From Nitrospirota bacterium (GTDB taxonomy: Bacteria > Nitrospirota > UBA9217): a DNA stretch of 64,000 nucleotides. A model generated the notes under the pieces. That model was given only the letters and a program-made list of their open reading frames with translations. It was not told where the DNA came from and made no database searches. Shown here piece after piece: positions 5,477 through 64,000 of the stretch; position 1 is the first letter of the stretch, and the number at the start of each line of letters is the position of its first letter. The stretch spans positions 1,088 through 65,087 of the forward strand of contig DATHDE010000201.1 in NCBI GenBank assembly GCA_035490495.1, given 5' to 3'. The position numbers and the translations under genes are program-made.

Positions 5477-6937
5477 CTAGCGCAACATCGTATAGCGCCA
5501 TACGTGCAGAAGCATCTGCAGGACAAGTCCTACGAGCATGAACGGGATGAGAATGTGGTAGATCAGTTTGATGATGAATACGAGCGGCGCGTTTTTCAGG
5601 CTCGGCTCGTAATGGGAGAGCCAGGCATCGGGGAACGACTCGGTGGCTCCCGCATGACATTGCCGGCATTGTTTCACGAGCCGCGCCTTGACCAGATTCG
5701 TGCCCGGGCCCTTTGTGCTGGTGATGTCATGCACGCCGTGACAATCGATGCACGTGGCAAGGGCTTTTCTCATTGCGACTGCTGCCGCGCCCCGTTTGTC
5801 CTTCTGCTGGCGGTAGAGCGTGATGGTAAGGCCGTGGAAGTCGTCCAGATAGGAATTGACCACGCCGGGATAGAGCCCGTATTTTTTCATGAGCGTTTTA
5901 TTGGCGTGGCACTGGCCGCAGATATCGGGGACCTTCTCGCGGTAGTCCATGGTACGGGGATCCTGGATGGCATGCGCGGAATGGCAGTCGATGCAGACAG
6001 GGACGTCCGTATTGTGTTCGTTGACCAGCGCCTTGCCGTGAATGCTTGACGCATAGGTAGCATACACCGCGCCATGGCATTTTTTGCAGGTGTGCGCCGT
6101 CTGCGTTTTATCCGTCTGGACCGGGGAGACGAGGTGACTGCCGTGGCAGTCGGTGCATACAGGCGCTTTGAGATTCCCCTGGCTCAGCATGGAATAGTGG
6201 ATGCTGTCGAGGGATTTCGAATACTTGTCGAAATGACAGCGCCTGCACGCGTCGGCATTCGCCAGGGAGAGTTCGCGTGCACTGCGGAATTCGCGCTTCG
6301 GGTGTTCTGCGGAAGAGAAGCCGAAATGGCAGTCAAAGCAACTGAGCTTTCCGTGCACCGATGCATCAAGACCGGCGCTGTCCACCCTGAGCGAAACGGG
6401 TTCGCTGTTCATCATCACAGCGGTCAGTGCATGTTCATGGCATCCGAGACAGTAGCGTCTTTCGCCTGCAACGGTTTTCCCTCCTGCGATGGGAGTAACC
6501 GAGTGGGCATTGTGGCATCTCGTACAAACGGGCGCACTGCTCTCTTTGGTAAGCACTGCGGCATGTATGGGCTTGGCCTTCAGCGAATCAGCTGAATGGC
6601 ACCGGCGGCACATCACCGCGGCCCGCAGCGCATACTGCTCCCGTGAAACAAAAACCTTTCCCTGCCCGCCCTGGTGGTTGTCCGCCGTGTAATCGGTGTG
6701 GCAGGCTGAGCAGCCAAGGGGGGCGTGCACGGACGCCTTGAATGCCGTGGCGTTGACGTATGCTTCCAGGGTCTCGTTCGTTCGCAATGATACGCTCAGC
6801 CCCTTCTGCCCGTGACACGACAGGCACGAGAGCGATTCTTCGGATAATTCCCCTGCCGGTGCGTTCGTACCTGAGCCCGGGAAAAAGCTCAAACACCAGA
6901 GCAGGGCTGCTCCCCATCGTATGATTTTTTGTATCAT
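5477..6937 (-). CDS. Multiheme c-type cytochrome (13 CXXCH), C-terminal membrane anchor, paralog 1
   Basis: Start taken at MIQKIIRWGAALLWCLSFF (signal-like). I counted 13 CXXCH motifs. C-terminal hydrophobic helix (LIYHILIPFMLVGLVLQMLL). Confidence 0.85.
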   Translation of the reverse strand: MIQKIIRWGAALLWCLSFFPGSGTNAPAGELSEESLSCLSCHGQKGLSVSLRTNETLEAYVNATAFKASVHAPLGCSACHTDYTADNHQGGQGKVFVSREQYALRAAVMCRRCHSADSLKAKPIHAAVLTKESSAPVCTRCHNAHSVTPIAGGKTVAGERRYCLGCHEHALTAVMMNSEPVSLRVDSAGLDASVHGKLSCFDCHFGFSSAEHPKREFRSARELSLANADACRRCHFDKYSKSLDSIHYSMLSQGNLKAPVCTDCHGSHLVSPVQTDKTQTAHTCKKCHGAVYATYASSIHGKALVNEHNTDVPVCIDCHSAHAIQDPRTMDYREKVPDICGQCHANKTLMKKYGLYPGVVNSYLDDFHGLTITLYRQQKDKRGAAAVAMRKALATCIDCHGVHDITSTKGPGTNLVKARLVKQCRQCHAGATESFPDAWLSHYEPSLKNAPLVFIIKLIYHILIPFMLVGLVLQMLLHVWRYTMLR

Positions 6938-7051
6938 GTTCGTTTCTCCCGCAGTACTGCACCGTGACTCTGCTGCGATGTAGGCGCAGGAAGGTGCGGT
7001 CAGAAGCACGCCTTCATACACTCCGCCATTCGAACGCAATCGCCTTCCTGC

Positions 7052-14188: not shown

Positions 14189-15634
14189 ATGAATGTTAAG
14201 AATGTCATATTCCTGTGCGCGCTCCTGCCGCTTTTGAGCATGCTCCTGCCGCTTCCGGGCGGTGCTGCTGCCGAAACGATATCCAATCAAAACGATGCCT
14301 GCCTCGCCTGCCATGCGAAGCAGGATATCGTCATTTCGTTCCAGAACAACGAATCGCTGTCGGGTCATGTCGATGTTGAAAAGCTGAAAGCCTCGGCCCA
14401 CGGTGAGCTGGCCTGCTCTGCCTGCCACATCGAATTCGCCTCCGCTCAGCATCCGAAAAGAATTTTCAGGAGCCGCGAACAGTTCACGGTACGGGCGTCG
14501 CTCGTCTGCAGGCGCTGTCACAGCGACGAACAGCTGAAGGCACGGCCGGTCCACGTCGAACTGCTCGAACGCCAGAAAGCCGGCGCTCCCGCTGTCTGCG
14601 CTGACTGCCATGGCGCGCATTCGGTCATTCGAGTCACCCGGAGAAAGTCACTCAACGACGACGCGAAAAGCTGCCTCAGTTGCCATCGACGTCCCATCCG
14701 CATCGCCTTCCAGAAAGGCGAAGCCCAGTCGTATATCGTGGATGCGACGGTCCTGGAGGGATCGGTCCACAACAAACTTTCATGCGCAGACTGCCACTAC
14801 GGGTTTTCACGGGATGAACATCCGAAGCGCCAGTTCCGTTCTCCGCGCGACATGACCATCGCTTCGGCCGAGTCCTGCCGCAGGTGCCACTTTGACAAAT
14901 ACTCAAAGTTCCAGGACAGCATCCACTACACGAAGCTGAGCCAGGGCTTTCTCAAGGCCCCGGTTTGCACGGATTGTCACGGCCATCATTCCATCTCTTC
15001 CATTTCAAAGGAGAGGATCGTCAGCGCCAACCGCTGCCGCAAGTGCCATCCCGACATATACGACACGTATGCGAAAAGCGTTCACGGCAACGCACTGGTG
15101 AATGAATTCAACCAGGACGTTCCCGTGTGCGTTGACTGTCATACGACGCATGACATACAGAATCCCCACAGCCTGGAATTCCGGGAACGCGTACCTCAGA
15201 TGTGCAGCTCGTGCCATGCAAATAAGGGGATTATGGGGAAATACGGACTGTCCACGGATGTCATGAAGACCTATCTGTCCGATTTCCACGGTGTCACGCT
15301 CGGCTTTTACATAAAGCAGAAGAATCTGCTCCCTGCGCAGGCAAAGGGGATCGCTGTCTGCACCGACTGCCATGGAACGCACAATATCACGAGCACGGTG
15401 AGCCCGGATGCTACGACCGTCAAGGCCAATCTGGTACAACGTTGCCGGAAATGCCATGCAAATGCAACGGAAAATTTCCCCGATGCGTGGATATCGCATT
15501 ACAAACCAAGTCTTAAGCGGGCGCCCCTGTTGTTTGTCATTACGATCCTGTATAAGTTCTTGACTCCCCTCATCATCTTAGGATTGGTTTTGCAGATCTT
15601 GCTGCACATCTGGCGCTATGCAGTGAGCAGGTGA
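14189..15634 (+). CDS. Multiheme c-type cytochrome (13 CXXCH), C-terminal membrane anchor, paralog 2
   Basis: 481 aa with a signal peptide, 13 CXXCH motifs and a C-terminal helix (LIILGLVLQILLHIW). Homologous along its length to 5477-6937. Confidence 0.85.
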   Translation: MNVKNVIFLCALLPLLSMLLPLPGGAAAETISNQNDACLACHAKQDIVISFQNNESLSGHVDVEKLKASAHGELACSACHIEFASAQHPKRIFRSREQFTVRASLVCRRCHSDEQLKARPVHVELLERQKAGAPAVCADCHGAHSVIRVTRRKSLNDDAKSCLSCHRRPIRIAFQKGEAQSYIVDATVLEGSVHNKLSCADCHYGFSRDEHPKRQFRSPRDMTIASAESCRRCHFDKYSKFQDSIHYTKLSQGFLKAPVCTDCHGHHSISSISKERIVSANRCRKCHPDIYDTYAKSVHGNALVNEFNQDVPVCVDCHTTHDIQNPHSLEFRERVPQMCSSCHANKGIMGKYGLSTDVMKTYLSDFHGVTLGFYIKQKNLLPAQAKGIAVCTDCHGTHNITSTVSPDATTVKANLVQRCRKCHANATENFPDAWISHYKPSLKRAPLLFVITILYKFLTPLIILGLVLQILLHIWRYAVSR

Positions 15635-29744: not shown

Positions 29745-31535
29745 TTACTTCGCCAGTTTTGCCGCATTCTCGCCGGCTATTCTCCCAAACGTGATTGTCT
29801 GGGATATTGAATTGCCGCCCAGCCGATTCGCGCCGTGCACCCCGCCCGTTCCTTCTCCAGCTGCAAAGAGTCCGGGAATGGGCTTTCCATCCTTCGCGAT
29901 CACCTGGGAGTCCGCATTGATCTTCAGTCCGCCCATGGTGTAATGCACGCCTGGCAGTACTTCGATTGCGTGGAACCCCGGCGTCCTGATTGGCCGGGGC
30001 AGGTCAGGACGCTTGAAAACAGAATCGTTTTTTTCATCGTACGCCTTATTATATGCGTTGATTGTCGCTTCAAGCTGGCTCGCGGGCACTTTTATTTTCT
30101 CTGCAAGTTCGGCAATCGTATTTCCCGAAACAACAAGACCGAGATGAAAATAGCCATCGATCTGTTTCAGGCTCTTGCGGATGCCTTCATCAAACACGAG
30201 GTAGGCGGATTTTCCCGTCTGTGCAAGAATAGCCGCAGACGCAGCATCTCTGGTCGTGAGCTCGTTGACGAAGCGACTGCCTTCGTGATTCACGAGTACG
30301 GCACCGTTGCCCCGCACCGCTTCCGTGATAAGAATGCGGCTGCCTGCCGCCACGGTGGGATGAATCTGTATTTCTTTCATGTCAATGAGATACCCGCCTG
30401 CTGCAGCGCCGAGGTCCATTCCGTCCCCCGTCGCTCCCGGCTGGTTCGAGGTTGTCATGCCTTTGTAGGAGGGCTGATAGTAAGCCACCCGCTCGGGATT
30501 GGCTGAAAAACCTCCGGCACTGATGATAACAGCTTTGGCGTCGATCCGGTAGAGCCTGCTGTGTTTGCCGTCGACGAGCACGCCGGTTACGCGCCCCTTG
30601 CCGTCTTCGATGATCTTCACGACCCTGCTGTTCACCCGTATATCGATCTTCCGGTCATCGGCATTCTTCTTGAGGACCTGGGTGATATGTGCGCCAACAG
30701 CAGCACCGCCGCTTGGCCGGTGTGTCCTGTTTACGCTCGCTCCGCCCATCCGCCCCACATCGCTCAGATCTGCTCCCAAGGCCGTGAGCCAGTCCACAGA
30801 GGCGGCTGAATTCCTGGACAGGATCTTCACGAGTTCAGCATCATTGATGTTCTTGCCGCCTTTCATGGTATCGTCATACATGAGGTCCACGGTATCTTTA
30901 ATTCCCTTTTCCTTCTGGAACCTCGTTTCCGCGGCATTCATTCCCCCGGCCGCAAGCTGGCTGTTGCCGCCGGTTATGGGCATTTTTTCGAGTACGATGA
31001 CCTTTGCGCCTTTGTCATGGGCTGTGATCGCGGCAGTCAGTCCGGTTGCACCCGCTCCGATAACGACGATATCTGCCTTTGCGATCTCGATCTTATCAGG
31101 GATCTTGTCCACAACAGCGACAGCTGCCGGGGGTAATTGAGCGGCCACGGCGCCCTGGGGAATTTTCAGGTTGAAATTGTGGCAATTGAGGCAGTAGGTC
31201 CACGATGCTGTATGGCCATGGTGGCAGGTGGTGCAGCTTATGGTTCCGAGATGGGATTTGTGCGGATTGATCTCGTGTTTGGATTTTTCCGCCATTGCCG
31301 AGAGCGTGCCGTGGCACTGAATACACTTCGCATTGACCATGGTTTCGCTGTCATCCATCACGGTCTTCTCTCCGTGACACGTGGCGCACTCGATCGCTTT
31401 TGCTTTGTGCGCACCCGCAAGGAACGCATCACGCGTCTGCGCTCCTTTGCCGGGATCCGCGTCCGCCAAAAGATTCGATGCAGACAAAAAAACCACCATG
31501 AACAGCAGACTTGCCATTCCCTTCGTCTTTTTCAT
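29745..31535 (-). CDS. Periplasmic flavocytochrome c (tetraheme domain + FAD-dependent fumarate-reductase-like domain)
   Basis: 596 aa. Signal peptide, four CXXCH motifs (CATCH, CIQCH, CTTCH, CLNCH), FAD dinucleotide fold VVIGAGATGLTAA and a C-terminal GLFAAGE...GANRLGGNS motif. Confidence 0.85.
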   Translation of the reverse strand: MKKTKGMASLLFMVVFLSASNLLADADPGKGAQTRDAFLAGAHKAKAIECATCHGEKTVMDDSETMVNAKCIQCHGTLSAMAEKSKHEINPHKSHLGTISCTTCHHGHTASWTYCLNCHNFNLKIPQGAVAAQLPPAAVAVVDKIPDKIEIAKADIVVIGAGATGLTAAITAHDKGAKVIVLEKMPITGGNSQLAAGGMNAAETRFQKEKGIKDTVDLMYDDTMKGGKNINDAELVKILSRNSAASVDWLTALGADLSDVGRMGGASVNRTHRPSGGAAVGAHITQVLKKNADDRKIDIRVNSRVVKIIEDGKGRVTGVLVDGKHSRLYRIDAKAVIISAGGFSANPERVAYYQPSYKGMTTSNQPGATGDGMDLGAAAGGYLIDMKEIQIHPTVAAGSRILITEAVRGNGAVLVNHEGSRFVNELTTRDAASAAILAQTGKSAYLVFDEGIRKSLKQIDGYFHLGLVVSGNTIAELAEKIKVPASQLEATINAYNKAYDEKNDSVFKRPDLPRPIRTPGFHAIEVLPGVHYTMGGLKINADSQVIAKDGKPIPGLFAAGEGTGGVHGANRLGGNSISQTITFGRIAGENAAKLAK

Positions 31536-42530: not shown

Positions 42531-42599
42531 TTTTTTTGCATTAAAAAACAAGGATATTGTTTATCCTTTTTTATACATTTGAGGAACGGAGGCCCCTGC

Positions 42600-43937
42600 A
42601 TGGATACCCTGGCGTTAAGCAGGCTTCAATTCGCAGTCACAAGCATGTTCCACTGGATTTTTGTTCCCCTGACTCTCGGACTTTCTGTGCTGACTGCCTA
42701 CATGGAAACGAAATACGTCAGGACCGCAGACACGACCTATCTCCGGATGACAAAATTCTGGGGCAAACTGTTCCTCATCAACTTTGCGCTCGGTATTGTT
42801 ACCGGCCTTACCATGGAATTTCAGTTTGGCATGAACTGGGCCGAGTATTCGAAATACGTGGGCGACATCTTCGGAGCGCCGCTCGCTATTGAAGCGACCC
42901 TTGCGTTCTTCCTCGAATCCGTTTTCATCGGTGTATGGATTTTCGGATGGAATAAAGTATCAAAAGCAACCCATGCTCTTGCCATCTGGATCGTGGCCCT
43001 GGCAACGAATCTCTCGGCCCTGTGGATACTACTTGCAAACGGCTGGATGCAGAAACCCGTGGGGTACGTCCTGAGGAACAACCGGGCTGAGATGACCGAT
43101 TTCGGTGCGCTGCTTACGAACGATTACGGACTGCTCAAGTTCGGCCATACCCTCTCCTCGGGATATGTCGTAGCTGCATTTTTTGTCATGGCCATATCTG
43201 CGTACCATTTGCTCAGAAAAAACAATGTCGATTTCTTCCAGCGCTCTTTCAAAATGGCGGCGATTTTCGGACTCGCGTCGTCCCTGCTCGTTGCAGTAAT
43301 CGGGGATATCAATGCGGCAGAGATCGCACGCAACCAGCCGACAAAGTTCGCTGCCATGGAATCGCTCTGGGAAACGCAGAAGGGTGTTGGGTTCAACCTG
43401 ATCGTCATCCCCGACACTGCACGGGAATGCAATGCGGTCGAGGGCCCTTGCGTCCCGCGCCTGCTGAGCTATCTCGCGTTTCACAATCCTGACGCGGAGA
43501 TCAAGGGGCTGAAGGCATTTCCCGCAGAAGAAAGGCCGCCGGTCTGGCCAGTCTTCGCTGGCTTCCGCGTCATGGTATTGATAGGCGGCCTTCTCCTGCT
43601 GCTCTCTGTTTTCGGTGTCTTCTATTCCCTTCGCGGTACACTGGAACAGCACCGCCTTTTCCTGCTTCTCGTGCTCTACGCCCTTCCCCTTCCCTACATT
43701 GCTGGACAGCTGGGATGGATTGTTGCGGAAATCGGCCGCCAGCCGTGGATTGTCTACGGCGTTCTGAAAACATCACAGGCTGTTTCCCGGTCAGTCAGCG
43801 CCGTGCAGGTCGTTATTTCGCTGCTCGGTTTCACGGTCTTGTACAGCGGACTGGGCATCGTGGATGTCTACCTTCTGACGAAATTTGCCCGGAAAGGTCC
43901 TGAAGACGCTGGTTCTGCCGCCATTCCGACACGCTAG
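42600..43937 (+). CDS. cydA: Cytochrome bd quinol oxidase subunit I
   Basis: Start taken at MDTLALSRLQFAVTSMFHWIFVPLT. Contains GWIVAEIGRQPW (the Q-loop-distal motif). Confidence 0.9.
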   Translation: MDTLALSRLQFAVTSMFHWIFVPLTLGLSVLTAYMETKYVRTADTTYLRMTKFWGKLFLINFALGIVTGLTMEFQFGMNWAEYSKYVGDIFGAPLAIEATLAFFLESVFIGVWIFGWNKVSKATHALAIWIVALATNLSALWILLANGWMQKPVGYVLRNNRAEMTDFGALLTNDYGLLKFGHTLSSGYVVAAFFVMAISAYHLLRKNNVDFFQRSFKMAAIFGLASSLLVAVIGDINAAEIARNQPTKFAAMESLWETQKGVGFNLIVIPDTARECNAVEGPCVPRLLSYLAFHNPDAEIKGLKAFPAEERPPVWPVFAGFRVMVLIGGLLLLLSVFGVFYSLRGTLEQHRLFLLLVLYALPLPYIAGQLGWIVAEIGRQPWIVYGVLKTSQAVSRSVSAVQVVISLLGFTVLYSGLGIVDVYLLTKFARKGPEDAGSAAIPTR

Positions 43938-55071: not shown

Positions 55072-56178
55072 CTAAGCCAGTCGTTTTTTGAACCTGACAG
55101 CGCTCATGGTGAAAACGGTCAGGCCGATGATCATCAATGCTGCCATCTGCGGCCAGAGCGCGCCGAACCCGTTGCCCTTGAGGAATATGCCGCGGATAAT
55201 GACCAGGAAATACCGAAGCGGATTGGCATACGTAACGATCCGGAAAACCGCCGGCATATTCTCGATGGGAAACATGAAGCCCGATAGCAGAACCGCAGGC
55301 ATAAAAAACAGGAACGTTGCCATCAGCGCCTGTTGAAGCGATTTGGCAATGGTCGAAATGAAAAGCCCCAGCCCGAGTACGGACAGAAGATAGATTGCCG
55401 TCGACAGGGGAAGAAGCCAGAGCGGTCCGTTAACCGGGATCTTGAAGATAAGGACACCAAGAAGGGTTATCAGAACCATGTCGAAAAAAGCGATGATCGC
55501 AAAAGGTATGGTCTTTCCCAAAATCAATTCGGCGGGCCGGAGCGGCGTGACCATGAGCTGCTCCATGGTGCCCATTTCCCGCTCCCTGACCACTGCCATA
55601 GATGTGAGCAACAGCGATGTAAGCATGATGACCATGGCGATCACACCCGGCACGTTGTAATTCTTGCTTTTCAGGTCGGGATTATACCATGCGCGCAGTC
55701 TGACGTCGACGATTCCCGCAGATGACGGCGTCATATCCCGGGCATATTGCATGACAATCCGGTTGGTATAATCGAGGGCGACCGTGGTTGTGTTGGAGTC
55801 GGTGCCGTCCGCGAGCACCTGGATGGATACGGGTGCACCCCTGCGAAGATCGGAACCGAACTTGTTGTCGATCCTGAGCGCGACCGTAACTTCTGCGCGA
55901 TCCAGCAAATCAGTAACCACCGCGGGGCTGTCCGGTACGGCGACGATCTTGAAGTAACCGGAAGCCTCGAATCTCCTTACGAGCTCCCTGCTTTCGAACG
56001 ATTTGTCGAGATCGATGACTGCGGTAGGGATATTGTTCACATCCGTTGTCACGGCGAATCCGAACACGACGGTCTGAACGAGGGGAATGACGAATACAAT
56101 CGCCTTCATGCGGACATCCCTGAATATCTGGATGAATTCCTTGACGACCATCTGTTTGATGCGTTCAATACTGAACAT
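55072..56178 (-). CDS. ABC-2 type transporter permease (YbhR-like)
   Basis: 368 aa. N-terminal TM helix, a large periplasmic loop and five C-terminal TM helices. Confidence 0.8.
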   Translation of the reverse strand: MFSIERIKQMVVKEFIQIFRDVRMKAIVFVIPLVQTVVFGFAVTTDVNNIPTAVIDLDKSFESRELVRRFEASGYFKIVAVPDSPAVVTDLLDRAEVTVALRIDNKFGSDLRRGAPVSIQVLADGTDSNTTTVALDYTNRIVMQYARDMTPSSAGIVDVRLRAWYNPDLKSKNYNVPGVIAMVIMLTSLLLTSMAVVREREMGTMEQLMVTPLRPAELILGKTIPFAIIAFFDMVLITLLGVLIFKIPVNGPLWLLPLSTAIYLLSVLGLGLFISTIAKSLQQALMATFLFFMPAVLLSGFMFPIENMPAVFRIVTYANPLRYFLVIIRGIFLKGNGFGALWPQMAALMIIGLTVFTMSAVRFKKRLA

Positions 56179-56299
56179 GTCGTTCTCCGCCGGGAAGCAG
56201 CAACGCTGCGAGGGGCAGGGATCCGGCCCCCCTTTCTTTCCGATTTACTTCATAACTCTGCATACAACACGCTGCGCGCCATGCTGACTGGCCCTGCTC

Positions 56300-57409
56300 C
56301 TACACAATCTTTTTTCTGAATTTCCTGTTCGCAATCGCGAATACGAGTGCGCCGTATATCACGAGAAACAGGGCATCCCACGCCAGAATGCTGAACGGAT
56401 TGCCTTTGAGAAATATCCCCTTGAGGATGACGATAAAATACCTCGCCGGCACGATCCGCGAAATGACCTGGAGCGGGACCGGCATGTTCATGATGGCGAA
56501 CATGAATCCGGAAAAAAGGAACGCCGGCAGAAAAGTGGCGACCATCGCCATCTGGCTCGCCACCAGCTGCGACTTTGCGACGATGGAGATGAGCATCCCG
56601 AGTCCCAATACGCCGAATAAGAACACGCACGAAAGGACCGCGAGCATGAACAGACTTCCCCGGAACGGGATGTCGAACACAAAGACCGCCATCAGCACGG
56701 TCAGGATCATGTCGATAAATCCTATGAAAAAATACGGGGCCATTTTGCCGAGTATGAGCTCAACGGTCTTGACGGGCGTCGAAATGAGCTGTTCCATCGT
56801 CCCGCGCTCCCATTCCCGTGCAAACGTGAGCGACGTGAGGAGGGCTGCAATCACCATCATGATGACCGCGATCAGGCCCGGAATGATGAAGTTCCTTGAT
56901 TTGAGCTCCGGGTTGTACCATACCCGAATCCGGGGATCAACGCGAAGGAGCGAACTCCTTCCTGCGATCCGCCGGCCTGCGATCTCCGTAAGCGCGGAGA
57001 GATATCCGATCGCTATGGCTGCCGTGTTTGAATCGCTGCCGTCCACAATGACCTGAAGCGGGGCCGTATTCCCCCTGCCCGCATGTTTAGCGAAATCCCG
57101 CGGAATAGATACAGCGACCCGGGCCAGCCCCCGATCGAGATAACGGTCGATTTCCCGCTGTGAATCGGCGTATCTCACGACGGTAAAGTATCCGGATGCG
57201 GTGAATTCCTCGATCAGCGCCCTGCTCGTGCTGCTCCGGTCTGCATCATACACAATCGTCGTGAGATTATTGACATCAAGAGTAATTGCATAGCCGAAGA
57301 TAACGAGAAGCAGCACCGGCATCACAAATGCCAGGGCGAGGCTCAGGGGATCGCGCCATATTTGAAGCGTCTCTTTACGCGCGACTGCTTTTATGCGGAT
57401 GAATTTCAT
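56300..57409 (-). CDS. ABC-2 type transporter permease (YbhS-like)
   Basis: Start taken at MKFIRIKAVARKETLQIWRDP. Paralogous to 55072-56178. Confidence 0.8.
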   Translation of the reverse strand: MKFIRIKAVARKETLQIWRDPLSLALAFVMPVLLLVIFGYAITLDVNNLTTIVYDADRSSTSRALIEEFTASGYFTVVRYADSQREIDRYLDRGLARVAVSIPRDFAKHAGRGNTAPLQVIVDGSDSNTAAIAIGYLSALTEIAGRRIAGRSSLLRVDPRIRVWYNPELKSRNFIIPGLIAVIMMVIAALLTSLTFAREWERGTMEQLISTPVKTVELILGKMAPYFFIGFIDMILTVLMAVFVFDIPFRGSLFMLAVLSCVFLFGVLGLGMLISIVAKSQLVASQMAMVATFLPAFLFSGFMFAIMNMPVPLQVISRIVPARYFIVILKGIFLKGNPFSILAWDALFLVIYGALVFAIANRKFRKKIV

Positions 57410-57615
57410 AGTAGCATAACGGGTTCTGTTGCTCAGAGCACACGGACAATAAATTTGCCGCAAAGTTCACAGCGAGGCAGCGGCACGATGGTAACAGCAA
57501 GAGGGAGTGTTCCGCGTCCCCGGTGGATACAACTGCCTTTTACAAATCCGGTGCCTGCGCACCGCTCTCTGCTGTCCGCTTTGCCCGGTGCGACGAAATC
57601 GCCCCGTTTCTCTTC

Positions 57616-58539
57616 CTAGGACACTTCTATCAACGTTACGAACACATCTTCCAGCGACGGTTCTATTTCCGATATTTTTCCTGCGCCTATTCCAGCATCC
57701 TGTAATATTCCCTGAATACGAGTGATTGCGGCCTCACTGTCGTCAACGGTGGCGTGGAGAAGGCTGCCGAATACCGCTGTTTCAATTCCCTGCTTGCCGA
57801 GCGCATCCATTGCGCCGATCAACGGCTCGGCCTCGATTTCGAGGACATGGCGCTTCATGAAGTTGGTCCTCAGTTCGGAAGGCGTCCCCTCGGCGACGAT
57901 TTTTCCGCGATAAATCAGGGCGAGCCGGTCGCAATAATCCGCCTCATCCATGTAATGGGTCGTGACGAACACGGACGTTCCCGTCCTGGCCATTTCCGAG
58001 ATCAGGCCCCAGAAGTTCCTTCGCGAAATAGGGTCAACGCCCGAGGTCGGTTCATCGAGGAAGAGAATCTGCGGCTCGTGCAGAATCGCGCACCCGAGGG
58101 CGAGCCTTTGCTTGTAGCCGCCGGGAAGCGTTCTCGTCAGCGCCGTTCTCCTGTCCCGAAGATCCGCCATTGCAAGGGCCCATTCCTTGCGGGCGTTCTT
58201 CTTCGATTCCGGCACGCTGTAAATACCGCTGAAGAAATTGATGTTCTCTTCAACCGTCAGGTCGTCGTACAGGGAAAACTTCTGGGACATGTAGCCGATG
58301 GTCTGTTTTATTTCCTCGGACTGGCTGATAATGTCGAATCCCCCCACGCTGCCGCTCCCGGACGTGGGCAGGAGAAGGCCGCAGAGCATACGGATGGTGG
58401 TCGATTTGCCCGCGCCGTTCGGCCCCAGGAAGCCGAATATCCGCCCCTTTTCGATTTCGAGGCTGATGTGATCAACAGCCGTAAAATCGCCGAAGGTTCT
58501 TGTCAGGCCATGTATCTTAACAGCAAACCGGGTTTCCAT
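57616..58539 (-). CDS. ABC transporter ATP-binding protein
   Basis: 307 aa. Walker A GPNGAGKST, signature LPGGYKQRL, Walker B ILFLDEPT. Confidence 0.9.
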   Translation of the reverse strand: METRFAVKIHGLTRTFGDFTAVDHISLEIEKGRIFGFLGPNGAGKSTTIRMLCGLLLPTSGSGSVGGFDIISQSEEIKQTIGYMSQKFSLYDDLTVEENINFFSGIYSVPESKKNARKEWALAMADLRDRRTALTRTLPGGYKQRLALGCAILHEPQILFLDEPTSGVDPISRRNFWGLISEMARTGTSVFVTTHYMDEADYCDRLALIYRGKIVAEGTPSELRTNFMKRHVLEIEAEPLIGAMDALGKQGIETAVFGSLLHATVDDSEAAITRIQGILQDAGIGAGKISEIEPSLEDVFVTLIEVS

Positions 58540-58574
58540 AGTGTAGTACTTCGCACGCTGTTCTTTATTCTTGG

Positions 58575-59513
58575 CTACTTTTCGACGAGCGAGATGAACA
58601 CATCCTCGAGTGAAGGAAGTATTTCACGCACATCTTTGATCTCGACTCCCGCTTTTTTCACGGCATCCAGGACAGACGCCCGCACCGCGTGCCGTTCCAG
58701 CGCAACATGCAGCCGGTCGCCGTACAAGCTTACCGAGAACACGCCCGGGATGTGTTGTACGGCATCACTGGCAAAGCGCGGATGTTCCGGCCAGAGTTCA
58801 AGCATCGTTCTGTCGAACGAACTTCTGATCTTCTTCGGCACATCCTCAACGAGGATACGCCCCCTGTGCATCAAACCTATTCTGGTACAGCGCTCAGCCT
58901 CGTCGAGATAGGCGGTTGACACGAAAATCGTCACGCCATCCTTGAGCAGGTCGTAGAGAATGCGCCAGAAGTCGCGGCGCGATACAGGATCGACGCCGTT
59001 CGTGGGTTCGTCGAGAATTAAAACTTCCGGCGTATGAATAAGTGCACAGGCGAGTCCCAGTTTCTGTTTCATGCCGCCCGACAGCTTTCCTGCAAGCCTG
59101 TTTTTAAATGGCGTGAGATTGCTGAACCCGAGAAGGCGTTCAATTCGCGCGGGGCGTTCCTTGCTCGACACAGCGAAGATATCGGCGTAGAAGAGTATAT
59201 TTTCCATCACGGTCAGGTCTTCGTACAGCCCGAACCGCTGCGACATGTAACCGACTTTTTCGCTGATCTTTCCCGCATCACGGACAAGGGAGTCTCCGAA
59301 GATCCACCCATCTCCCGATGTCGGATCCATGATGGCGGCAAGCATCCGCATGGTCGTGCTTTTTCCCGCACCATCGGGCCCCACAAGGCCGTACAGCTCC
59401 CCCTTGTTGACAGCGAGATTCAATCTGTCAACGGCACGAATCGAACCGAACGTTTTACTCAAATCGGATGTTTTTATGGCCGCATCAGCCGACATGGAAG
59501 GCCTTCCGGTCAC
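58575..59513 (-). CDS. ABC transporter ATP-binding protein
   Basis: 312 aa. Walker A GPDGAGKST, signature LSGGMKQKL, Walker B VLILDEPT. Confidence 0.9.
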   Translation of the reverse strand: MTGRPSMSADAAIKTSDLSKTFGSIRAVDRLNLAVNKGELYGLVGPDGAGKSTTMRMLAAIMDPTSGDGWIFGDSLVRDAGKISEKVGYMSQRFGLYEDLTVMENILFYADIFAVSSKERPARIERLLGFSNLTPFKNRLAGKLSGGMKQKLGLACALIHTPEVLILDEPTNGVDPVSRRDFWRILYDLLKDGVTIFVSTAYLDEAERCTRIGLMHRGRILVEDVPKKIRSSFDRTMLELWPEHPRFASDAVQHIPGVFSVSLYGDRLHVALERHAVRASVLDAVKKAGVEIKDVREILPSLEDVFISLVEK

Positions 59514-60377
59514 CTATTTTTGCCCTGTGCTTCTCACTTCCGGCTCCGGACTCCCGACGCGTATTCGTACATCCGCCGGCATGCCGGGCTTCAGTTCATT
59601 ATTCTGGTTCTTAACACTCACCTTGACACCAAATACGAGCTTGACGCGCTCTTCCCTGGTCTGGACGTTCTTCGGCGTAAACTCAGCATCAGACGCGATA
59701 TAGGTCACGACGCCTTCATATTGTTTCCCGGGGAAGGTGTCGACCGATATATCGGCCTTTTGTCCGAGCTTGACCAGCCCGAGTTTGTCCTCCTTGACAT
59801 ACACCTTGACCCAGGGATTCTCGAGGTCTCCGATCGTGAAGATCGGCGTTCCGGCCCCCACTGTTTCTCCCTGTTCGACGTTCTTCCTGAGAACAATGCC
59901 GTTCAAGGGGGCTTGTATCACGCTGTCGCCCAGCCGGACCTGGGCTGTCCTGAGCGCGGCATGATATAACTGGAGCTGCGAATCAGCCTCTTCAAATGCG
60001 GTCCTTGCAGCATCCATCTGCTGCGGAGAGACAGCTTCATCCTTATACAGTTTTGCAAACCGCTCAAAATCGTTTTTGGCTTTCTCTCTCCGCGCCTCTG
60101 CATTCCTGACATTTGCACTGCTTTGGTGAACGATGGTTTCAAACTCGGCGCCGTCCAGTTCGGCTATCCGCTCCCCCGTGCGAACCGATCTGCCTTCATC
60201 GGTATGAAGCGCTTTCACCCTTCCCGGCACTTTAAAGGCAACGTTTACTTCCGTCACCTCGACATTTCCCGACAGAATCATATTGCCCTGGTCGCGGCTG
60301 TTGCTGAAATGATAATACGCAGCACTAACCACGGCAGTGGCTGCAATGACCCCGATGAATATCAACCGTTTTTTCAT
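59514..60377 (-). CDS. HlyD/YbhG-family membrane fusion (periplasmic adaptor) protein
   Basis: Start taken at MKKRLIFIGVIAATAVV. Coiled-coil hairpin and beta-barrel motifs (GMPADVRI). Confidence 0.8.
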   Translation of the reverse strand: MKKRLIFIGVIAATAVVSAAYYHFSNSRDQGNMILSGNVEVTEVNVAFKVPGRVKALHTDEGRSVRTGERIAELDGAEFETIVHQSSANVRNAEARREKAKNDFERFAKLYKDEAVSPQQMDAARTAFEEADSQLQLYHAALRTAQVRLGDSVIQAPLNGIVLRKNVEQGETVGAGTPIFTIGDLENPWVKVYVKEDKLGLVKLGQKADISVDTFPGKQYEGVVTYIASDAEFTPKNVQTREERVKLVFGVKVSVKNQNNELKPGMPADVRIRVGSPEPEVRSTGQK

Positions 60378-60434
60378 GTGATCCCCCCGGTTCGCTCCGC
60401 GACTAAAAGCACGGACTGAGAACGGCATGCATAT

Positions 60435-61022
60435 TCACGCCGCTATGCAGACTTCAAAGATCTTCCACATTTTGCGGCCTTCCGCAATAAGAGAAAACGA
60501 GAAACCGCTCAACGACCATCTGAACATCAGCCCCTGCACCATGCCGATGAACATGAGGGACATCGTTTTTGCGTCCAGCCCCCGGCGGAGAGAGCCCGCT
60601 TTCTGCGCCTTTTTCATGAAGGCCGCCAGGGTCGAGGAAAATGCATACATATTTTCGAGAAGCTTTTCCCTGAATTTTTCGGAAGTATGCAGCTCATCGG
60701 AAAACATAAACCTGAGGATGCCGCTGTTTCTGGCCATAAGGTCAAGCTGAAGTTCATAGAACTTTCTTAATTTTTCCAAAGGAGCGCCCTTGCCCGAAAG
60801 CGCGCGGTCTATATTATCGGAAATTCTTCCCTTTACGTATGCCATTGCCTCGCTGATAATGGCTTCTTTGTTCCTGAAATGACGATAGAGATTTCCTTCC
60901 GATATTCCTGCTTCCCGTGCAAGAGCCGCCGTGGTCAGTCCGCCGACACCGCTGCGGCTGATGACTGCGAAGGCCGCCTGGACGATTAGATCACGCCTGA
61001 TTTCACCCCGCAATTTCTTCAT
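60435..61022 (-). CDS. TetR-family transcriptional regulator
   Basis: Start taken at MKKLRGEIRRDLIVQAAFAVISRSGVGGLTTAALAREAGISEGNLYRHF (TetR HTH). First gene of the exporter operon. Confidence 0.85.
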   Translation of the reverse strand: MKKLRGEIRRDLIVQAAFAVISRSGVGGLTTAALAREAGISEGNLYRHFRNKEAIISEAMAYVKGRISDNIDRALSGKGAPLEKLRKFYELQLDLMARNSGILRFMFSDELHTSEKFREKLLENMYAFSSTLAAFMKKAQKAGSLRRGLDAKTMSLMFIGMVQGLMFRWSLSGFSFSLIAEGRKMWKIFEVCIAA

Positions 61023-61147
61023 GGTGCCTCCGGCACTCGCGCATTTTTGCAAGTGAGCGTTTATTTACATTATATCCCTGCGCCGCATATTGTCAAGGCT
61101 GTTTTATCTTGTGCATCGTTACGTATTTTCGCTATAATCATCCGTGT

Positions 61148-61705
61148 ATGCGGCAGATTGCGCATTTCATTCCGCGTTTCCGAGCACGCTGTTTCCGGGG
61201 AACCGGCATTGCTCTGCTTGCCGTTTTCCTGCTTTTTCCCCTTCCTGCATCGTCCGAAACGGTCCTGCACGAGGCAAAAGTCGTTGCCGTCGTCGATGGC
61301 GATACGGTAAAGCTCCTGCTCAACGGGGAAAAACGAACGTCGCGCCTCATCGGAATCGATGCCCCGGAAATGGGTCAGGTCCCCTGGGGCAGGAAATCCC
61401 GCGAGCACCTTCGGGCCTTGCTCAAGCAGTCGGCGTGGCGTGTTTCAGTGGAAATGGACGTGGAACAAACAGACAGATTTCGCCGCAGCCTTGTTTATCT
61501 CTGGCTCCAGAACGGCGAGATGGTGAACGAGCGGATGCTTCTGGACGGCTATGCGTTTCGCTTCACCATGAAGCCGAATACGCGGTACTCTGAGCGCTTC
61601 AAAAAAGCCCAACGGACTGCACGAGAAAAGAAACTGGGCGTATGGGGGCCGGACGGGCCGAAGGAACGGCCCGTTGATTATAAAAAGGATCATCCGCATA
61701 AATAA
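61148..61705 (+). CDS. Secreted thermonuclease (staphylococcal nuclease, SNase) family protein
   Basis: Start taken at MRQIAHF... (signal-like). Contains VVDGDTVKLL...RLIGIDAPE and LGVWG. Confidence 0.75.
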   Translation: MRQIAHFIPRFRARCFRGTGIALLAVFLLFPLPASSETVLHEAKVVAVVDGDTVKLLLNGEKRTSRLIGIDAPEMGQVPWGRKSREHLRALLKQSAWRVSVEMDVEQTDRFRRSLVYLWLQNGEMVNERMLLDGYAFRFTMKPNTRYSERFKKAQRTAREKKLGVWGPDGPKERPVDYKKDHPHK

Positions 61706-61751
61706 TTCGACCGGTCACGGGCGTTTCCTCCAACAGGAGAACAGATAGTCC

Positions 61752-62231
61752 ATGGTTCCTAACGAAAACAGGGACAGGGCGGATATACCATTTCCGCCGC
61801 CGCTCATTTTTTTTGCCGTCCTTGCGCTCGGCTCCGGGCTTGAGTATGTCTTCCCTACGCGGCCGATCCATTCTCCCCGGGCCGGCTGCATCATCACGGG
61901 ATTGCTGCTGGCAGTTGGAGCGGGAATCCTTGCCGCAGCCGCATTCGCTGCCCTCTTGCGCAACAAAACGACGTTCAATCCGTCAAAACCGACCACCACG
62001 ATCGTCCGCAGCGGACCGTTCCGTTTTTCCCGGAATCCCCTGTATCTTGCATTGGTGCTTCTGCACGCCGGCATTGCCGCCGGCTGCTGCTCCCTCTGGC
62101 TGTTCTGTTCATCGCTTGTTCTTCTGCTCATTCTTGATGTTGTTGTGGTCCGGCGGGAGGAGGACTATCTCAGCCGGAAGTTCGGTGAAACATACCTCAT
62201 GTACAAGGCAACGGTCAGGCGCTGGCTTTGA
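61752..62231 (+). CDS. Isoprenylcysteine carboxyl / phospholipid methyltransferase-family membrane protein
   Basis: 159 aa with four TM helices. Contains GPFRFSRNPLYLALVLLHAG and REEDYLSRKFGETY. Confidence 0.75.
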   Translation: MVPNENRDRADIPFPPPLIFFAVLALGSGLEYVFPTRPIHSPRAGCIITGLLLAVGAGILAAAAFAALLRNKTTFNPSKPTTTIVRSGPFRFSRNPLYLALVLLHAGIAAGCCSLWLFCSSLVLLLILDVVVVRREEDYLSRKFGETYLMYKATVRRWL

Positions 62232-62252
62232 CCGGTCATCCGGAGGTTTTCG

Positions 62253-62615
62253 ATGAGTTCATTCCTGAGAAGCTTGGTGCTCGTATCTGTTTTCACATCT
62301 ATTGCCGCGTCACGCCTGGCCGGCGAAGAGCTGAAGCAGGATCATTTCTGGTACCGTATTGAAGTCCAGACAGGCGATTCCACGTACCAGTGCATAGGCA
62401 GTTCTGCTTCTGACGAGAAGGAGCTCTCCCGGCAGATTAAGGAGGGTGCGGCCGTCCTTCTCGATGACGCTGCCTACATCGACTCGAACGGCAGAATCAA
62501 ATCCTGGAAGGACTGGGACGCCAAGGCCTCGCCGCGGCTCTATGTGAACAGCCGCTATATCATACTCGTCAATCCGCTCAAAGGTGACCCGAGAAATCCA
62601 GGATCGAAAAAATGA
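62253..62615 (+). CDS. Secreted hypothetical protein
   Basis: 120 aa with a signal peptide (MSSFLRSLVLVSVFTSIAAS). No recognisable family. Confidence 0.45.
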   Translation: MSSFLRSLVLVSVFTSIAASRLAGEELKQDHFWYRIEVQTGDSTYQCIGSSASDEKELSRQIKEGAAVLLDDAAYIDSNGRIKSWKDWDAKASPRLYVNSRYIILVNPLKGDPRNPGSKK

Positions 62616-62687
62616 GAATGCGCTTCTGCAATAATGCGCCGGAGTATTTTTGATCTCCCATTCCACGCAGTTCCGGAGGTGACCATC

Positions 62688-62957
62688 ATGCAGTCTGTTA
62701 TCGCCAACATCGGATGGGCAATACTTTTTTCCCTGATCGGCGGCATAGTCGGCCTGTGCCTGATCCTCGCTGCCGTGCGGGTGATTCCGCACATTATCGA
62801 CCGCCTGACGCCCAACATGGACGAGGACAAGGAGATCGCGAGGGGCAATCAGGCTGTTGCCGAATATTTCGGCAGGGTCGTTTCCGCCACGATCATTGCC
62901 GTGGGCATCGTGATCGCAGCAGCCATTCTTGCCGGCATAGTTGCCGCCTTGTACTGA
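62688..62957 (+). CDS. DUF350-family small membrane protein
   Basis: ATG after GGAGG. 89 aa with two or three TM helices. Contains DEDKEIARGNQAVA, typical of DUF350 (from memory). Confidence 0.6.
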   Translation: MQSVIANIGWAILFSLIGGIVGLCLILAAVRVIPHIIDRLTPNMDEDKEIARGNQAVAEYFGRVVSATIIAVGIVIAAAILAGIVAALY

Positions 62958-62976
62958 CAGGAGCGTGCGGTACGCC

Positions 62977-64000
62977 ATGCGATTTCGTGCAAGATTCATA
63001 GTCTGCCTGTTCATCCTCTGCATACTGCCCGCAGCGCTCCATGCCCGCGGCGGCGGAGGCTGCCTGGCGAAAGGGACACCGGTCCTTGCGCCGGGAGGTG
63101 CGGTGCCTGTTGAGCTCCTGCGCGCGGGAGACGTTGTCTTTGGCGCGGTCCGGAATGAACTTGTTCCCGTGACCGTACAGGCTGTTTTCCAGGTGGAATC
63201 CGGCGCTGTATACGATATTACCGTGAACGGGACAAGTCTTATTCTTACGGCAGAACATCCCGTGGCAGTAGCACCCGGGGTATTCCGCACCGTTTCTTCT
63301 CTCAAACAGGGCGACACCGTCCTGTCCGGGTCGGACGGCCGTCTGCATCGTGAAACAATCGGGCGGATACAGCGTCTGCCACGTGCCGGCCCGGCATATA
63401 ATATTCTCGTATCCCCTGCCGGGACGTACCTTGCCAATAACATTCTCGTGCACAATAAAGGCTGTTTTCTGCCGGAGACGCTGATCCGTCTCGCTGACGG
63501 CACGGATACACCGATCTCCAGCATACGGCCACACGATCAGCTTTTGGCTTTTACGCCTGATGGCGGCATTGTTCATGCATCCGTGCGCAGGGTGCTGACT
63601 CACGAGGTGAATGAGTACCGGATCGTGAGAACAGCCGATCGGGAGTTTCATGTCACGCCTGAACACCCTTTTTATACGGGTTCAGGAACGTTCAGGACGC
63701 TCGAAGCCCTTGGACCGGGAGACGAAATTTTCATGTTCGACGGGGCGGGCCTGAGCAGTGCAAAAATCGAGAGCATCGAGACTGTCCGGGCCAGAACCGC
63801 CGTATACAATATAGAGACCGATGCGCCCAATACCTTTTTTGCAGACGGGGCAGCCGTCCACAACAAGGGGGGAGGCGGCTGCTTTCCCGCAGGCACGCTC
63901 ATAACAACGCCTCGGGGCGATGTTCCTATTGAACGGCTGTCTGCAGGTGACACCGTAACCGGCATTGACAGGATCGGCCGACTCGTTCCGGTCGTGATAC
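62977..64000 (+). CDS. Secreted protein made of tandem Hint (bacterial intein-like) domains, 5' part (continues past the right edge)
   Basis: Absent from the ORF track because there is no stop in the window. My translation gives a signal peptide MRFRARFIVCLFILCILPAALHA and then three successive units. Each starts GG(G)C(L/F)xxGT, has a TxEHP block (LTAEHP, VTPEHP) and ends VHNK. The unit-initial Cys codons are at 63061, 63463 and 63880. Confidence 0.7.
   Translation, partial: MRFRARFIVCLFILCILPAALHARGGGGCLAKGTPVLAPGGAVPVELLRAGDVVFGAVRNELVPVTVQAVFQVESGAVYDITVNGTSLILTAEHPVAVAPGVFRTVSSLKQGDTVLSGSDGRLHRETIGRIQRLPRAGPAYNILVSPAGTYLANNILVHNKGCFLPETLIRLADGTDTPISSIRPHDQLLAFTPDGGIVHASVRRVLTHEVNEYRIVRTADREFHVTPEHPFYTGSGTFRTLEALGPGDEIFMFDGAGLSSAKIESIETVRARTAVYNIETDAPNTFFADGAAVHNKGGGGCFPAGTLITTPRGDVPIERLSAGDTVTGIDRIGRLVPVVI

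Follow-up and report, generated by a model that had tools for sequence, protein, structure and literature searches.

Tandem intein-like domains predicted in the exported part of a Tim44-like membrane protein encoded next to a DUF350 gene

The window analysed here is a stretch of 64,000 nucleotides from a Nitrospirota bacterium (GenBank assembly GCA_035490495.1, contig DATHDE010000201.1). At its right-hand edge, at 62977-63999 on the plus strand, 341 stop-free codons remain open to the window end, which is most likely why this open reading frame (ORF) was absent from the program-made ORF list. A first-pass annotation, made from the letters alone, had translated it into a signal peptide followed by back-to-back Hint units at residues 29-160, 163-296 and 302 onward, and our translation confirms all residue numbers and motifs. 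Hint domains are known as single autoprocessing modules in inteins, bacterial intein-like (BIL) domains, Hedgehog proteins and pre-toxin HINTs. The family described here differs from these single Hints in that one to five abutting units, catalytically intact as judged by their residues, sit on the exported side of a conserved Tim44-like membrane protein. The reading frame of the window can be divided into the following parts:

62977..63045 (+): signal peptide, residues 1-23, MRFRARFIVCLFILCILPAALHA, with a basic n-region, a hydrophobic core and a predicted signal peptidase I site LHA↓R
63046..63060 (+): N-terminal flank Arg-Gly4, residues 24-28; its Gly-1 adjoins Cys1
63061..63456 (+): Hint/BIL unit 1, residues 29-160; Cys1 is C29, block B TAEH (91-94), block F YNIL, end VHN (H159-N160)
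63457..63462 (+): linker Lys-Gly, the +1 Lys of unit 1 (K161) and the -1 Gly of unit 2
63463..63864 (+): Hint/BIL unit 2, residues 163-296; Cys1 is C163 (GCF), TPEH (227-230), YNIE, VHN (H295-N296)
63865..63879 (+): linker Lys-Gly4 after unit 2, with K297 as the +1 residue; K plus 1-7 Gly in homologues
63880..64000 (+): first 40 residues of Hint/BIL unit 3, from C302; the window end cuts the unit, and the best stretch for Pfam Hint_2 is 302-331

Once the signal peptide is cleaved, Arg-Gly4 is the entire N-extein. R24 and G25-G28 are invariant in the alignment of homologues, and 68 of the 69 full-length homologues introduced below have precisely one R and four G as their flank. Of 68 homologues, 67 have A or G immediately before the signal peptidase site (position -1), and 66 have A, V, L or S at position -3. 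The linker between units 1 and 2 reads KG in 66 out of 69 full-length proteins; the second linker is variable (KGGG in 27, KGGGGG in 15, KGGGG in 7 and KG in 4). The mature part of the window protein has Cys at C29, C163 and C302 only. The Gly-Cys junction of unit 2 reads GCF, like the cleavage site of Hedgehog. The base composition of the Hint region is the same as that of the rest of the window.

Profile searches recognise these units as Hint domains. Five Pfam models of the Hint clan (Hint_2 63, Hint 47, PT-HINT 42, Vint 40 and Intein_splicing 40 bits for the window protein) all exceeded their gathering scores, and the NCBIfam models intein_Nterm and intein_Cterm were above their cut-offs as well. 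A multi-unit AlphaFold2 model reached a predicted local distance difference test score (pLDDT) of 85.7 and a predicted template modelling score (pTM) of 0.71. In Foldseek comparisons the predicted structure gave target-normalised TM-scores of 0.77-0.87 to BIL, intein and Hedgehog structures, as would be expected for the horseshoe-shaped all-beta HINT fold. BIL2 of Tetrahymena BUBL ranked first (E = 2e-9), followed by the NpuDnaB intein and then by 2LWY, a BIL domain of C. thermocellum. The latter is the only solved structure matched by sequence (E = 3.5e-5); this match covers residues 31-160 of unit 1, for which the pLDDT is about 90.

About 290 family proteins were searched for further units, which were delimited by a profile hidden Markov model (HMM) and not by their catalytic residues. 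Cys is the first residue in 604 of 605 HMM-defined units and is preceded by Gly at -1 in 597 of 605, while the last two residues are His-Asn in 589 of 595 and the +1 residue is Lys in 592 of 595. Within block B, the Thr and the His of TxxH are each 99% conserved. The units measure 132-134 aa, which is the mini-intein range, contain no endonuclease, and have Cys1 as their sole Cys in 160 of 202 cases. The initial picture of tandem, mini-intein-sized Hints with a full set of autoprocessing residues and almost nothing between them thus holds. Between species, units at the same position share a mean identity of 46% (unit 1), 55% (unit 2, the best conserved class) and 42% (unit 3), whereas units from different positions of a single protein share only about 30-33%. 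Therefore, units 1, 2 and 3 appear to be old, distinct classes, with unit 4 falling into the class of unit 3.

The Lys at +1, a point absent from the first reading, marks the units as candidate BIL-type domains and not as canonical splicing inteins. A canonical class 1 intein was rejected, since the window units and 592 of the 595 family units have Lys at this position and so no Cys, Ser or Thr. A Hog domain of the Hedgehog type was rejected as well, because the units end in His-Asn and the next unit or the Gly-rich tail follows within 2-8 residues. A-type BILs were reportedly described by Amitai et al. in 2003 and Dassa et al. in 2004, and the CthBIL4 structure 2LWY by Aranko et al. in 2013. 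The defining features of type A BILs are a C-terminal His-Asn and the lack of a +1 nucleophile; they mainly cleave at both ends and can ligate via the amine freed by Asn cyclisation (PMC4031507; PMC7664689). With Cys1 and TxxH, a C-terminal His-Asn and no Cys, Ser or Thr at +1, the units described here pass by their sequence as members of this type. Further similarities are the HINT fold, the mini-intein size, an exported host protein, the lack of an endonuclease and a block F with YN (not YD), shared with 2LWY. They are unlike other A-type BILs in occurring as one to five head-to-tail units with Lys-Gly(n) spacers of 2-8 residues, in the invariant Lys+1 and Gly-1, and in residing on a conserved membrane host protein (58% identity) with a fixed gene partner. 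The literature presents known BILs as solitary domains that lie in hypervariable parts of non-conserved proteins (PMC7765530). Here the location is an exported, low-complexity tail with variable copy number, but the host is conserved and has a DUF350 partner.

Tetrahymena BUBL (BIL2 structures 6Y75/6TMM) likewise holds several BILs per polypeptide, and Lys, the nucleophile in BUBL, is invariant at +1 here. BUBL is however eukaryotic and cytosolic, and between its units lie whole ubiquitin-like (Ubl) domains, which are the products; the present proteins are bacterial and exported and have only Lys-Gly(n) spacers. A Pfam scan found no Ubl domain, and the spacers consist of K plus 1-7 Gly. Canonical mini-inteins such as NpuDnaB and SspDnaB are alike in fold, in blocks A, B, F and G and in the existence of Hint-free "alleles" of the host protein; they differ from the present units, which are in tandem, lack a +1 nucleophile and reside in a host that is not a replication or repair protein. 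Moreover, canonical inteins are inserted at a conserved active site, whereas here the site is a Gly-rich low-complexity tail, though Hint-free relatives exist (P0360, P0326, P0310). No description of a tandem Hint/BIL array was found in the literature searched, which for BILs consisted of reviews, so that primary BIL papers may mention tandem BILs. The same literature contained no description of a Tim44-like protein with Hint domains or of a DUF350-Tim44 gene pair.

What follows the array was learned from homologues. The protein collection contained 141 homologues of the window fragment, the best of them at E = 1e-114 and 57% identity, a match far beyond chance; the window protein itself is not in this collection. 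An exact 48-base pattern from the window end had no match among metagenome contigs. Up to 195 related stretches were confirmed when a collection with a single genome for each species was scanned with a pattern, and 80 loci were retrieved and kept. All of these come from metagenome-assembled or otherwise uncultured genomes and represent at least eight phyla, the taxa being Nitrospirota, Verrucomicrobiota, Planctomycetota, Lentisphaerota/Victivallales, Syntrophales and other delta-type lineages, Acidobacteria, Anaerolineales and one gammaproteobacterium. Genera that occur by name among the metagenomic hits include Syntrophus, Smithella, Victivallis, Lacunisphaera and Oleiharenicola. One uninterrupted, complete ORF makes up the gene in 69 loci; 13 of these proteins were scored with two units, 49 with three, 6 with four and one with five. 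Two-unit proteins are typically about 740 aa long, three-unit proteins about 875 aa and four-unit proteins about 1010 aa. All 69 share one order of parts: signal peptide, A↓RGGGG, an array of the form [C...HN]-KG-[C...HN]-K-Gly(n)-[C...HN], tail, transmembrane (TM) helix and two Tim44-like domains. In the loci L043, L046 and L061, the Hint-Tim44 gene is distributed over two or three ORFs, for which assembly or sequencing errors or real pseudogenes may be the explanation. Many shorter database entries are fragments or frameshifted calls.

Beyond the array, the homologues continue with K-Gly(n), a stretch rich in Gly, Ser, His and Phe, one TM helix, basic residues, the motif ENLD(F/Y)xY... and two Pfam Tim44 domains. 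The closest full-length relative of the window protein, L003 from another Nitrospirota genome, is 58% identical and has 875 aa with three units, the TM helix and both Tim44 domains. Judged from its length, about 530 residues probably lie past the window end, namely the remainder of unit 3, the Gly/Ser-rich stretch, the TM helix and the two Tim44-like domains. The first-pass view of a protein made of nothing except tandem Hint domains must therefore be given up, as the full-length homologues add all these elements. Of the secreted polyprotein it had proposed, the signal peptide stands, but the homologues are membrane proteins with a TM helix and two Tim44-like domains. It had also considered a cargo beyond the window. 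Further sequence does indeed follow the array in the homologues; this is however a conserved membrane protein with a mean pairwise identity of 58% in its C-terminal part, and not a variable toxin.

These findings bear directly on the idea of a polymorphic-toxin pre-toxin HINT module that frees a C-terminal toxin, which we regard as hardly credible. Pfam PT-HINT matches, and NCBI names P0010 'polymorphic toxin-type HINT domain-containing protein, partial'; but the C-terminal part consists of the conserved TM helix and two Tim44-like domains, and among the clustered loci there is neither a conserved downstream immunity gene nor a trafficking domain, nor any other conserved downstream gene. The architecture contradicts a toxin, and we rejected this reading. 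Database names of the family comprise 'hypothetical', 'TIM44-like domain-containing protein', 'YgcG' and the toxin-type name just mentioned, and names of the latter kind are corrected by this analysis.

The C-terminal part was modelled by AlphaFold2 (pLDDT 80) as two helical-plus-NTF2-like modules, with the Tim44 C-terminal domain and the mitoribosomal mL45 as best matches in the PDB. Both of these are membrane-peripheral anchors on the matrix side. As in bacterial Tim44-like/TimA proteins, the C-terminal half of the homologues matches Pfam Tim44; the NCBIfam model Tim44_TimA_adap matched it weakly (32.6 bits, cut-off 80). From the positive-inside rule we infer that the Hint array would be periplasmic and the Tim44-like domains cytoplasmic.

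Conservation of the flanking genes is restricted to the upstream side, where two ORFs precede the Hint gene:

62688..62957 (+): DUF350 gene, 89 aa, with two predicted TM helices and the conserved loop TPNMDEDKEIARGNQAVAEYFGR; Pfam DUF350 27.5 bits (cut-off 26)
62253-62615 (+): 120-aa ORF with a signal-peptide-like N-terminus, an orphan upstream of DUF350

The first in-frame start codon of the DUF350 gene is at 62634. The likely start is 62688, because GGAGG is found 8 nt upstream of it and because it gives the 89-aa length of the homologues. The gaps are those originally reported, 19 nt from the DUF350 stop (62957) to the Hint ATG (62977) and 72 nt from the stop of the 120-aa ORF (62615) to the DUF350 start. 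The two upstream genes had been considered together in the first-pass annotation, but only one of them belongs to the system. In the survey of homologues, 82 of 83 sources (among them the window) had a co-directional DUF350 gene as the immediate upstream neighbour of the Hint gene, and the two are probably co-transcribed. With a mean pairwise identity of 63%, the DUF350 protein, which matches the family of DUF350 (YjfL) membrane proteins, is the best conserved part of the cassette, and its loop motif TPN.DE.KEIARGN.AVAEYFGR is highly conserved. The DUF350 (YjfL) family has been noted in PspA-linked envelope operons (PMC11237479). The 120-aa ORF, in contrast, is not represented in any of the 82 related loci and gave no match in Pfam, NCBIfam or PADLOC; it appears to encode an orphan secreted protein unrelated to the Hint cassette.

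All-against-all clustering of the locus ORFs yielded as conserved members only the Hint-Tim44 protein, DUF350, LemA and antisense ORFs. LemA is located upstream of DUF350 in only 31 of 82 loci, mostly from Syntrophales and other delta-type genomes, and is missing from the window; it was rejected as a universal partner. The LemA proteins of delta-type genomes (L017 4801-5586 and others) gave a sub-threshold NCBIfam match to the magnetosome protein MamQ (70 bits, cut-off 250), consistent with MamQ being a LemA-family member. The antisense ORFs at 62310-63524 (-) and 62893-63666 (-) were discarded as shadows of the conserved sense frame; their cluster recurs in the 82 related loci because the sense strand is conserved. 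A defence system was rejected too, since PADLOC gave a weak match of a homing-endonuclease model over the end of a Hint unit and nothing else. A promoter and terminator scan of 61000-64000 revealed nothing decisive.

Relatives without Hint domains proved to be informative for the origin of the array. A Hint-less fragment, P0125 (TM helix and two Tim44 domains), was used as query against a library of representatives at 50% identity and found 1411 relatives at E <= 1e-3, of which 137 were at E <= 1e-30. Among the listed representatives of at least 400 aa, zero, one, two, three, four and five Hint units occur in 19, 22, 20, 20, 7 and 1 proteins, respectively; among the zero-unit entries are many fragments that have lost their N-terminus, which leaves fewer than 19 complete Hint-free proteins. 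Complete Hint-free relatives have the layout signal peptide-A↓RGGGG(S/G-rich)-TM-Tim44x2, that is, the same tail minus the Hints, as in these four proteins:

P0360: SLA↓RGGGGSGGSRSGGGGYSG...
P0326: TYA↓RGGGGGGTGGGGGGGFGGGYSGS...
P0310: CFA↓RGGSYDGGGGSGF...
P0317: ACA↓RGGLLSSDSGSSG...

For P0360 and P0310, a DUF350 gene of the same subfamily is located directly upstream, 39-40% identical to that of the window and with the same loop motif. The host protein would therefore be a bitopic, Tim44-like membrane protein that is paired with DUF350 and has a short periplasmic tail rich in Gly and Ser. Since the Hint-free relatives share this tail, the Hints would be insertions into it, between RGGGG and the remaining Gly-rich residues. 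The tails of the four Hint-free proteins are without Lys; the +1 Lys therefore travels with the Hint.

Copy number is in motion. Of the five units in P0269, numbers 2, 4 and 5 share 96-99% identity, and the otherwise near-identical P0276 has two units; P0241 contains a duplicated unit pair. This pattern points to recent tandem duplication, or possibly to mis-assembly of repeats. In a neighbour-joining tree of the C-terminal domain, Hint-free forms and those with one to five units are intermingled, and the star-like tree gives no direction of gain or loss. One could argue from the mixture of forms on this tree and from the recent duplications (P0269 versus P0276; P0241) that the Hints are domesticated or selfish intein-like insertions without a function of their own, which persist as an unexcised unit would cripple the host tail and whose number drifts by unequal recombination. 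We consider this improbable. The units have neither a homing endonuclease nor a +1 nucleophile, and the tail should tolerate imprecise deletion, yet units 1 and 2 are position-specific orthologues, kept at 46-55% identity in Nitrospirota, Verrucomicrobiota, Planctomycetota, Lentisphaerota, Syntrophales, Acidobacteria and others.

Two further observations concern relatives with other layouts. In P0249, which is 50% identical to the C-terminal part, the signal peptide, the Hint array and the tail give way to what look like several Gly-rich TM helices. Hints of the same subtype (G↓C...HN↓KG), single or in tandem, were also seen on other scaffolds, in P0085, P0095, P0103, P0104, P0112, P0092 and P0115. 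The first five of these form a group without signal peptide (M..AKG↓C), in which a Ser/Thr/Lys-rich region, a GDNGYxPRFxNGY motif and a C-terminal TM helix follow. P0092 has two units, then a His/Ser-rich run and a TIGR03000 domain, and in P0115 the unit directly precedes GGGGGC and an unrelated domain.

With some reserve, we consider it probable that the ORF of the window represents the 5' portion of a gene that encodes a bitopic protein of the inner membrane with at least three A-type BIL units and that the array removes itself after export. Extrapolating from the behaviour of type A BILs, the chemistry may proceed as follows. The protein would be exported by Sec and its signal peptide cleaved, and each unit would fold in the periplasm. 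Cys1 would then undergo an N-to-S acyl shift at the Gly-Cys bond, yielding a thioester, and the terminal Asn would cyclise and break the Asn-Lys bond. By plain cleavage, a Lys-Gly-rich N-terminus would be left on the membrane protein. Alternatively, in a nucleophile-free ligation the freed +1 amine may attack the thioester and give RGGGG-KG-KGGGG-KGGG... The product of either route would resemble the tail of the Hint-free relatives.

Several points weigh against this interpretation. At 46, 55 and 42% identity, units 1, 2 and 3 are nearly as conserved as the C-terminal part (58%), and the Hints persist although their low-complexity tail should tolerate imprecise deletion; both facts suggest that the Hints do more than leave. 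The invariant Lys+1, the N-terminal flank of four Gly and the exact Lys-Gly linker (66/69) go beyond what simple self-removal would require. The redox state of the periplasm could block Cys1. The family is known from sequences and models, by which autoprocessing is predicted, and the 3' end of the window's gene is deduced from homologues that are at most 58% identical.

The conserved junction residues may instead be read as signs of thioester-driven conjugation, in which a specific nucleophile captures the Gly thioester as in Hedgehog with cholesterol or in BUBL BIL2 with a Lys isopeptide. One candidate nucleophile is the epsilon-amine of the +1 Lys, from which isopeptide-branched products would arise; another is an envelope molecule, with which the array would carry out ATP-independent covalent chemistry in the periplasm. 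BUBL BIL2, the best structural match, uses a Lys epsilon-amine to make an isopeptide (PMC8616854). Lys+1 in 592/595 units, Gly-1 in 597/605 units and the Hedgehog-like GCF junction would fit such a reaction, and as there is no ATP in the periplasm a thioester would be a natural source of energy. However, the N-extein of unit 1 is only the pentapeptide RGGGG, which leaves little to transfer, neither an acceptor domain nor a region resembling sterol recognition is present, the Foldseek scores of BUBL BIL2, inteins and 2LWY lie close together, and the Lys is missing from the Hint-free relatives. We therefore regard conjugation as unlikely, if the least unlikely among the alternatives to self-removal.

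The high overall conservation of the units, of unit 2 above all, and the pTM of the multi-unit model, which suggests some fixed packing, would also suit Hints that stay attached as non-catalytic binding or spacer modules in the periplasm. This we find very doubtful, as it is hard to see why just the residues for N-S acyl shift and Asn cyclisation should be nearly invariant if they did no chemistry, and the copy number ranges from 0 to 5.

A more speculative thought, to which we give an even slimmer chance, is that the array serves as a ribosomally encoded, ATP-independent peptide factory in the periplasm. Each peptide between two units would obtain its alpha-amine from Asn cyclisation upstream, or from signal peptidase, and its C-terminal Gly thioester from the N-S acyl shift downstream, and could then cyclise; or the side chains of the +1 Lys could capture thioesters to form branched products. 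H2N-Lys-Gly-thioester would give the diketopiperazine cyclo(Lys-Gly), and RGGGG and K-Gly(3-5) would each give head-to-tail cyclic peptides, a natural counterpart of the engineered intein cyclisation in SICLOPPS. If this were true, amplification of units, as in the duplicates with 96-99% identity, would follow a polyprotein logic, with more product per translation. The second linker varies in length, which speaks against its yielding a specific product.

Returning to the array as a predicted self-removing element, what is new compared with descriptions in the literature searched is an array with near-zero exteins that is exported on a conserved Tim44-like protein with a fixed DUF350 partner. 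New are also the invariant Gly-1 and Lys+1 and the coexistence of Hint-free forms with forms of one to five units. If the units self-process, adjacent active sites would share a two-residue "extein" and offer a test bed for nucleophile-free ligation, isopeptide formation and cyclisation. The natural Hint-free and Hint-bearing versions would then allow one to ask why cells keep removable domains, and the system would give a first starting point for learning what the bacterial DUF350/Tim44-like pair does.

Several other features were observed in the window. Upstream of the cassette and co-directional with it are genes for an SNase-like protein at 61109-61705 (+), with an apparently hydrophobic N-terminus (Pfam SNase 66 bits), and for a PEMT/ICMT-type membrane methyltransferase at 61752-62231 (+, 50 bits). 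A promoter-like site at 61064-61093 precedes these two genes. The run of genes on the minus strand at 55072-61052 was read by eye as a TetR-like regulator, an HlyD-like adaptor, two ABC ATPases (Walker A GPNGAGKST and GPDGAGKST) and two guessed permeases, and would be an efflux-type operon. Scans for tRNAs and Rfam families gave no match in the whole 64 kb. The window furthermore encodes two multihaem cytochromes (c7/c3, with paired CXXCH), a flavocytochrome c (FAD_binding_2 plus cytochrome c3) and subunit I of a cytochrome bd oxidase. These cytochrome and oxidase genes are located at:

5477-7039 (-)
14189-15634 (+)
29745-31535 (-)
42579-43937 (+)

Several sensor kinases and a TonB-dependent receptor are present as well. 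Such gene content suggests that the host is a Gram-negative anaerobe or microaerophile in which electron transfer takes place outside the cytoplasm.

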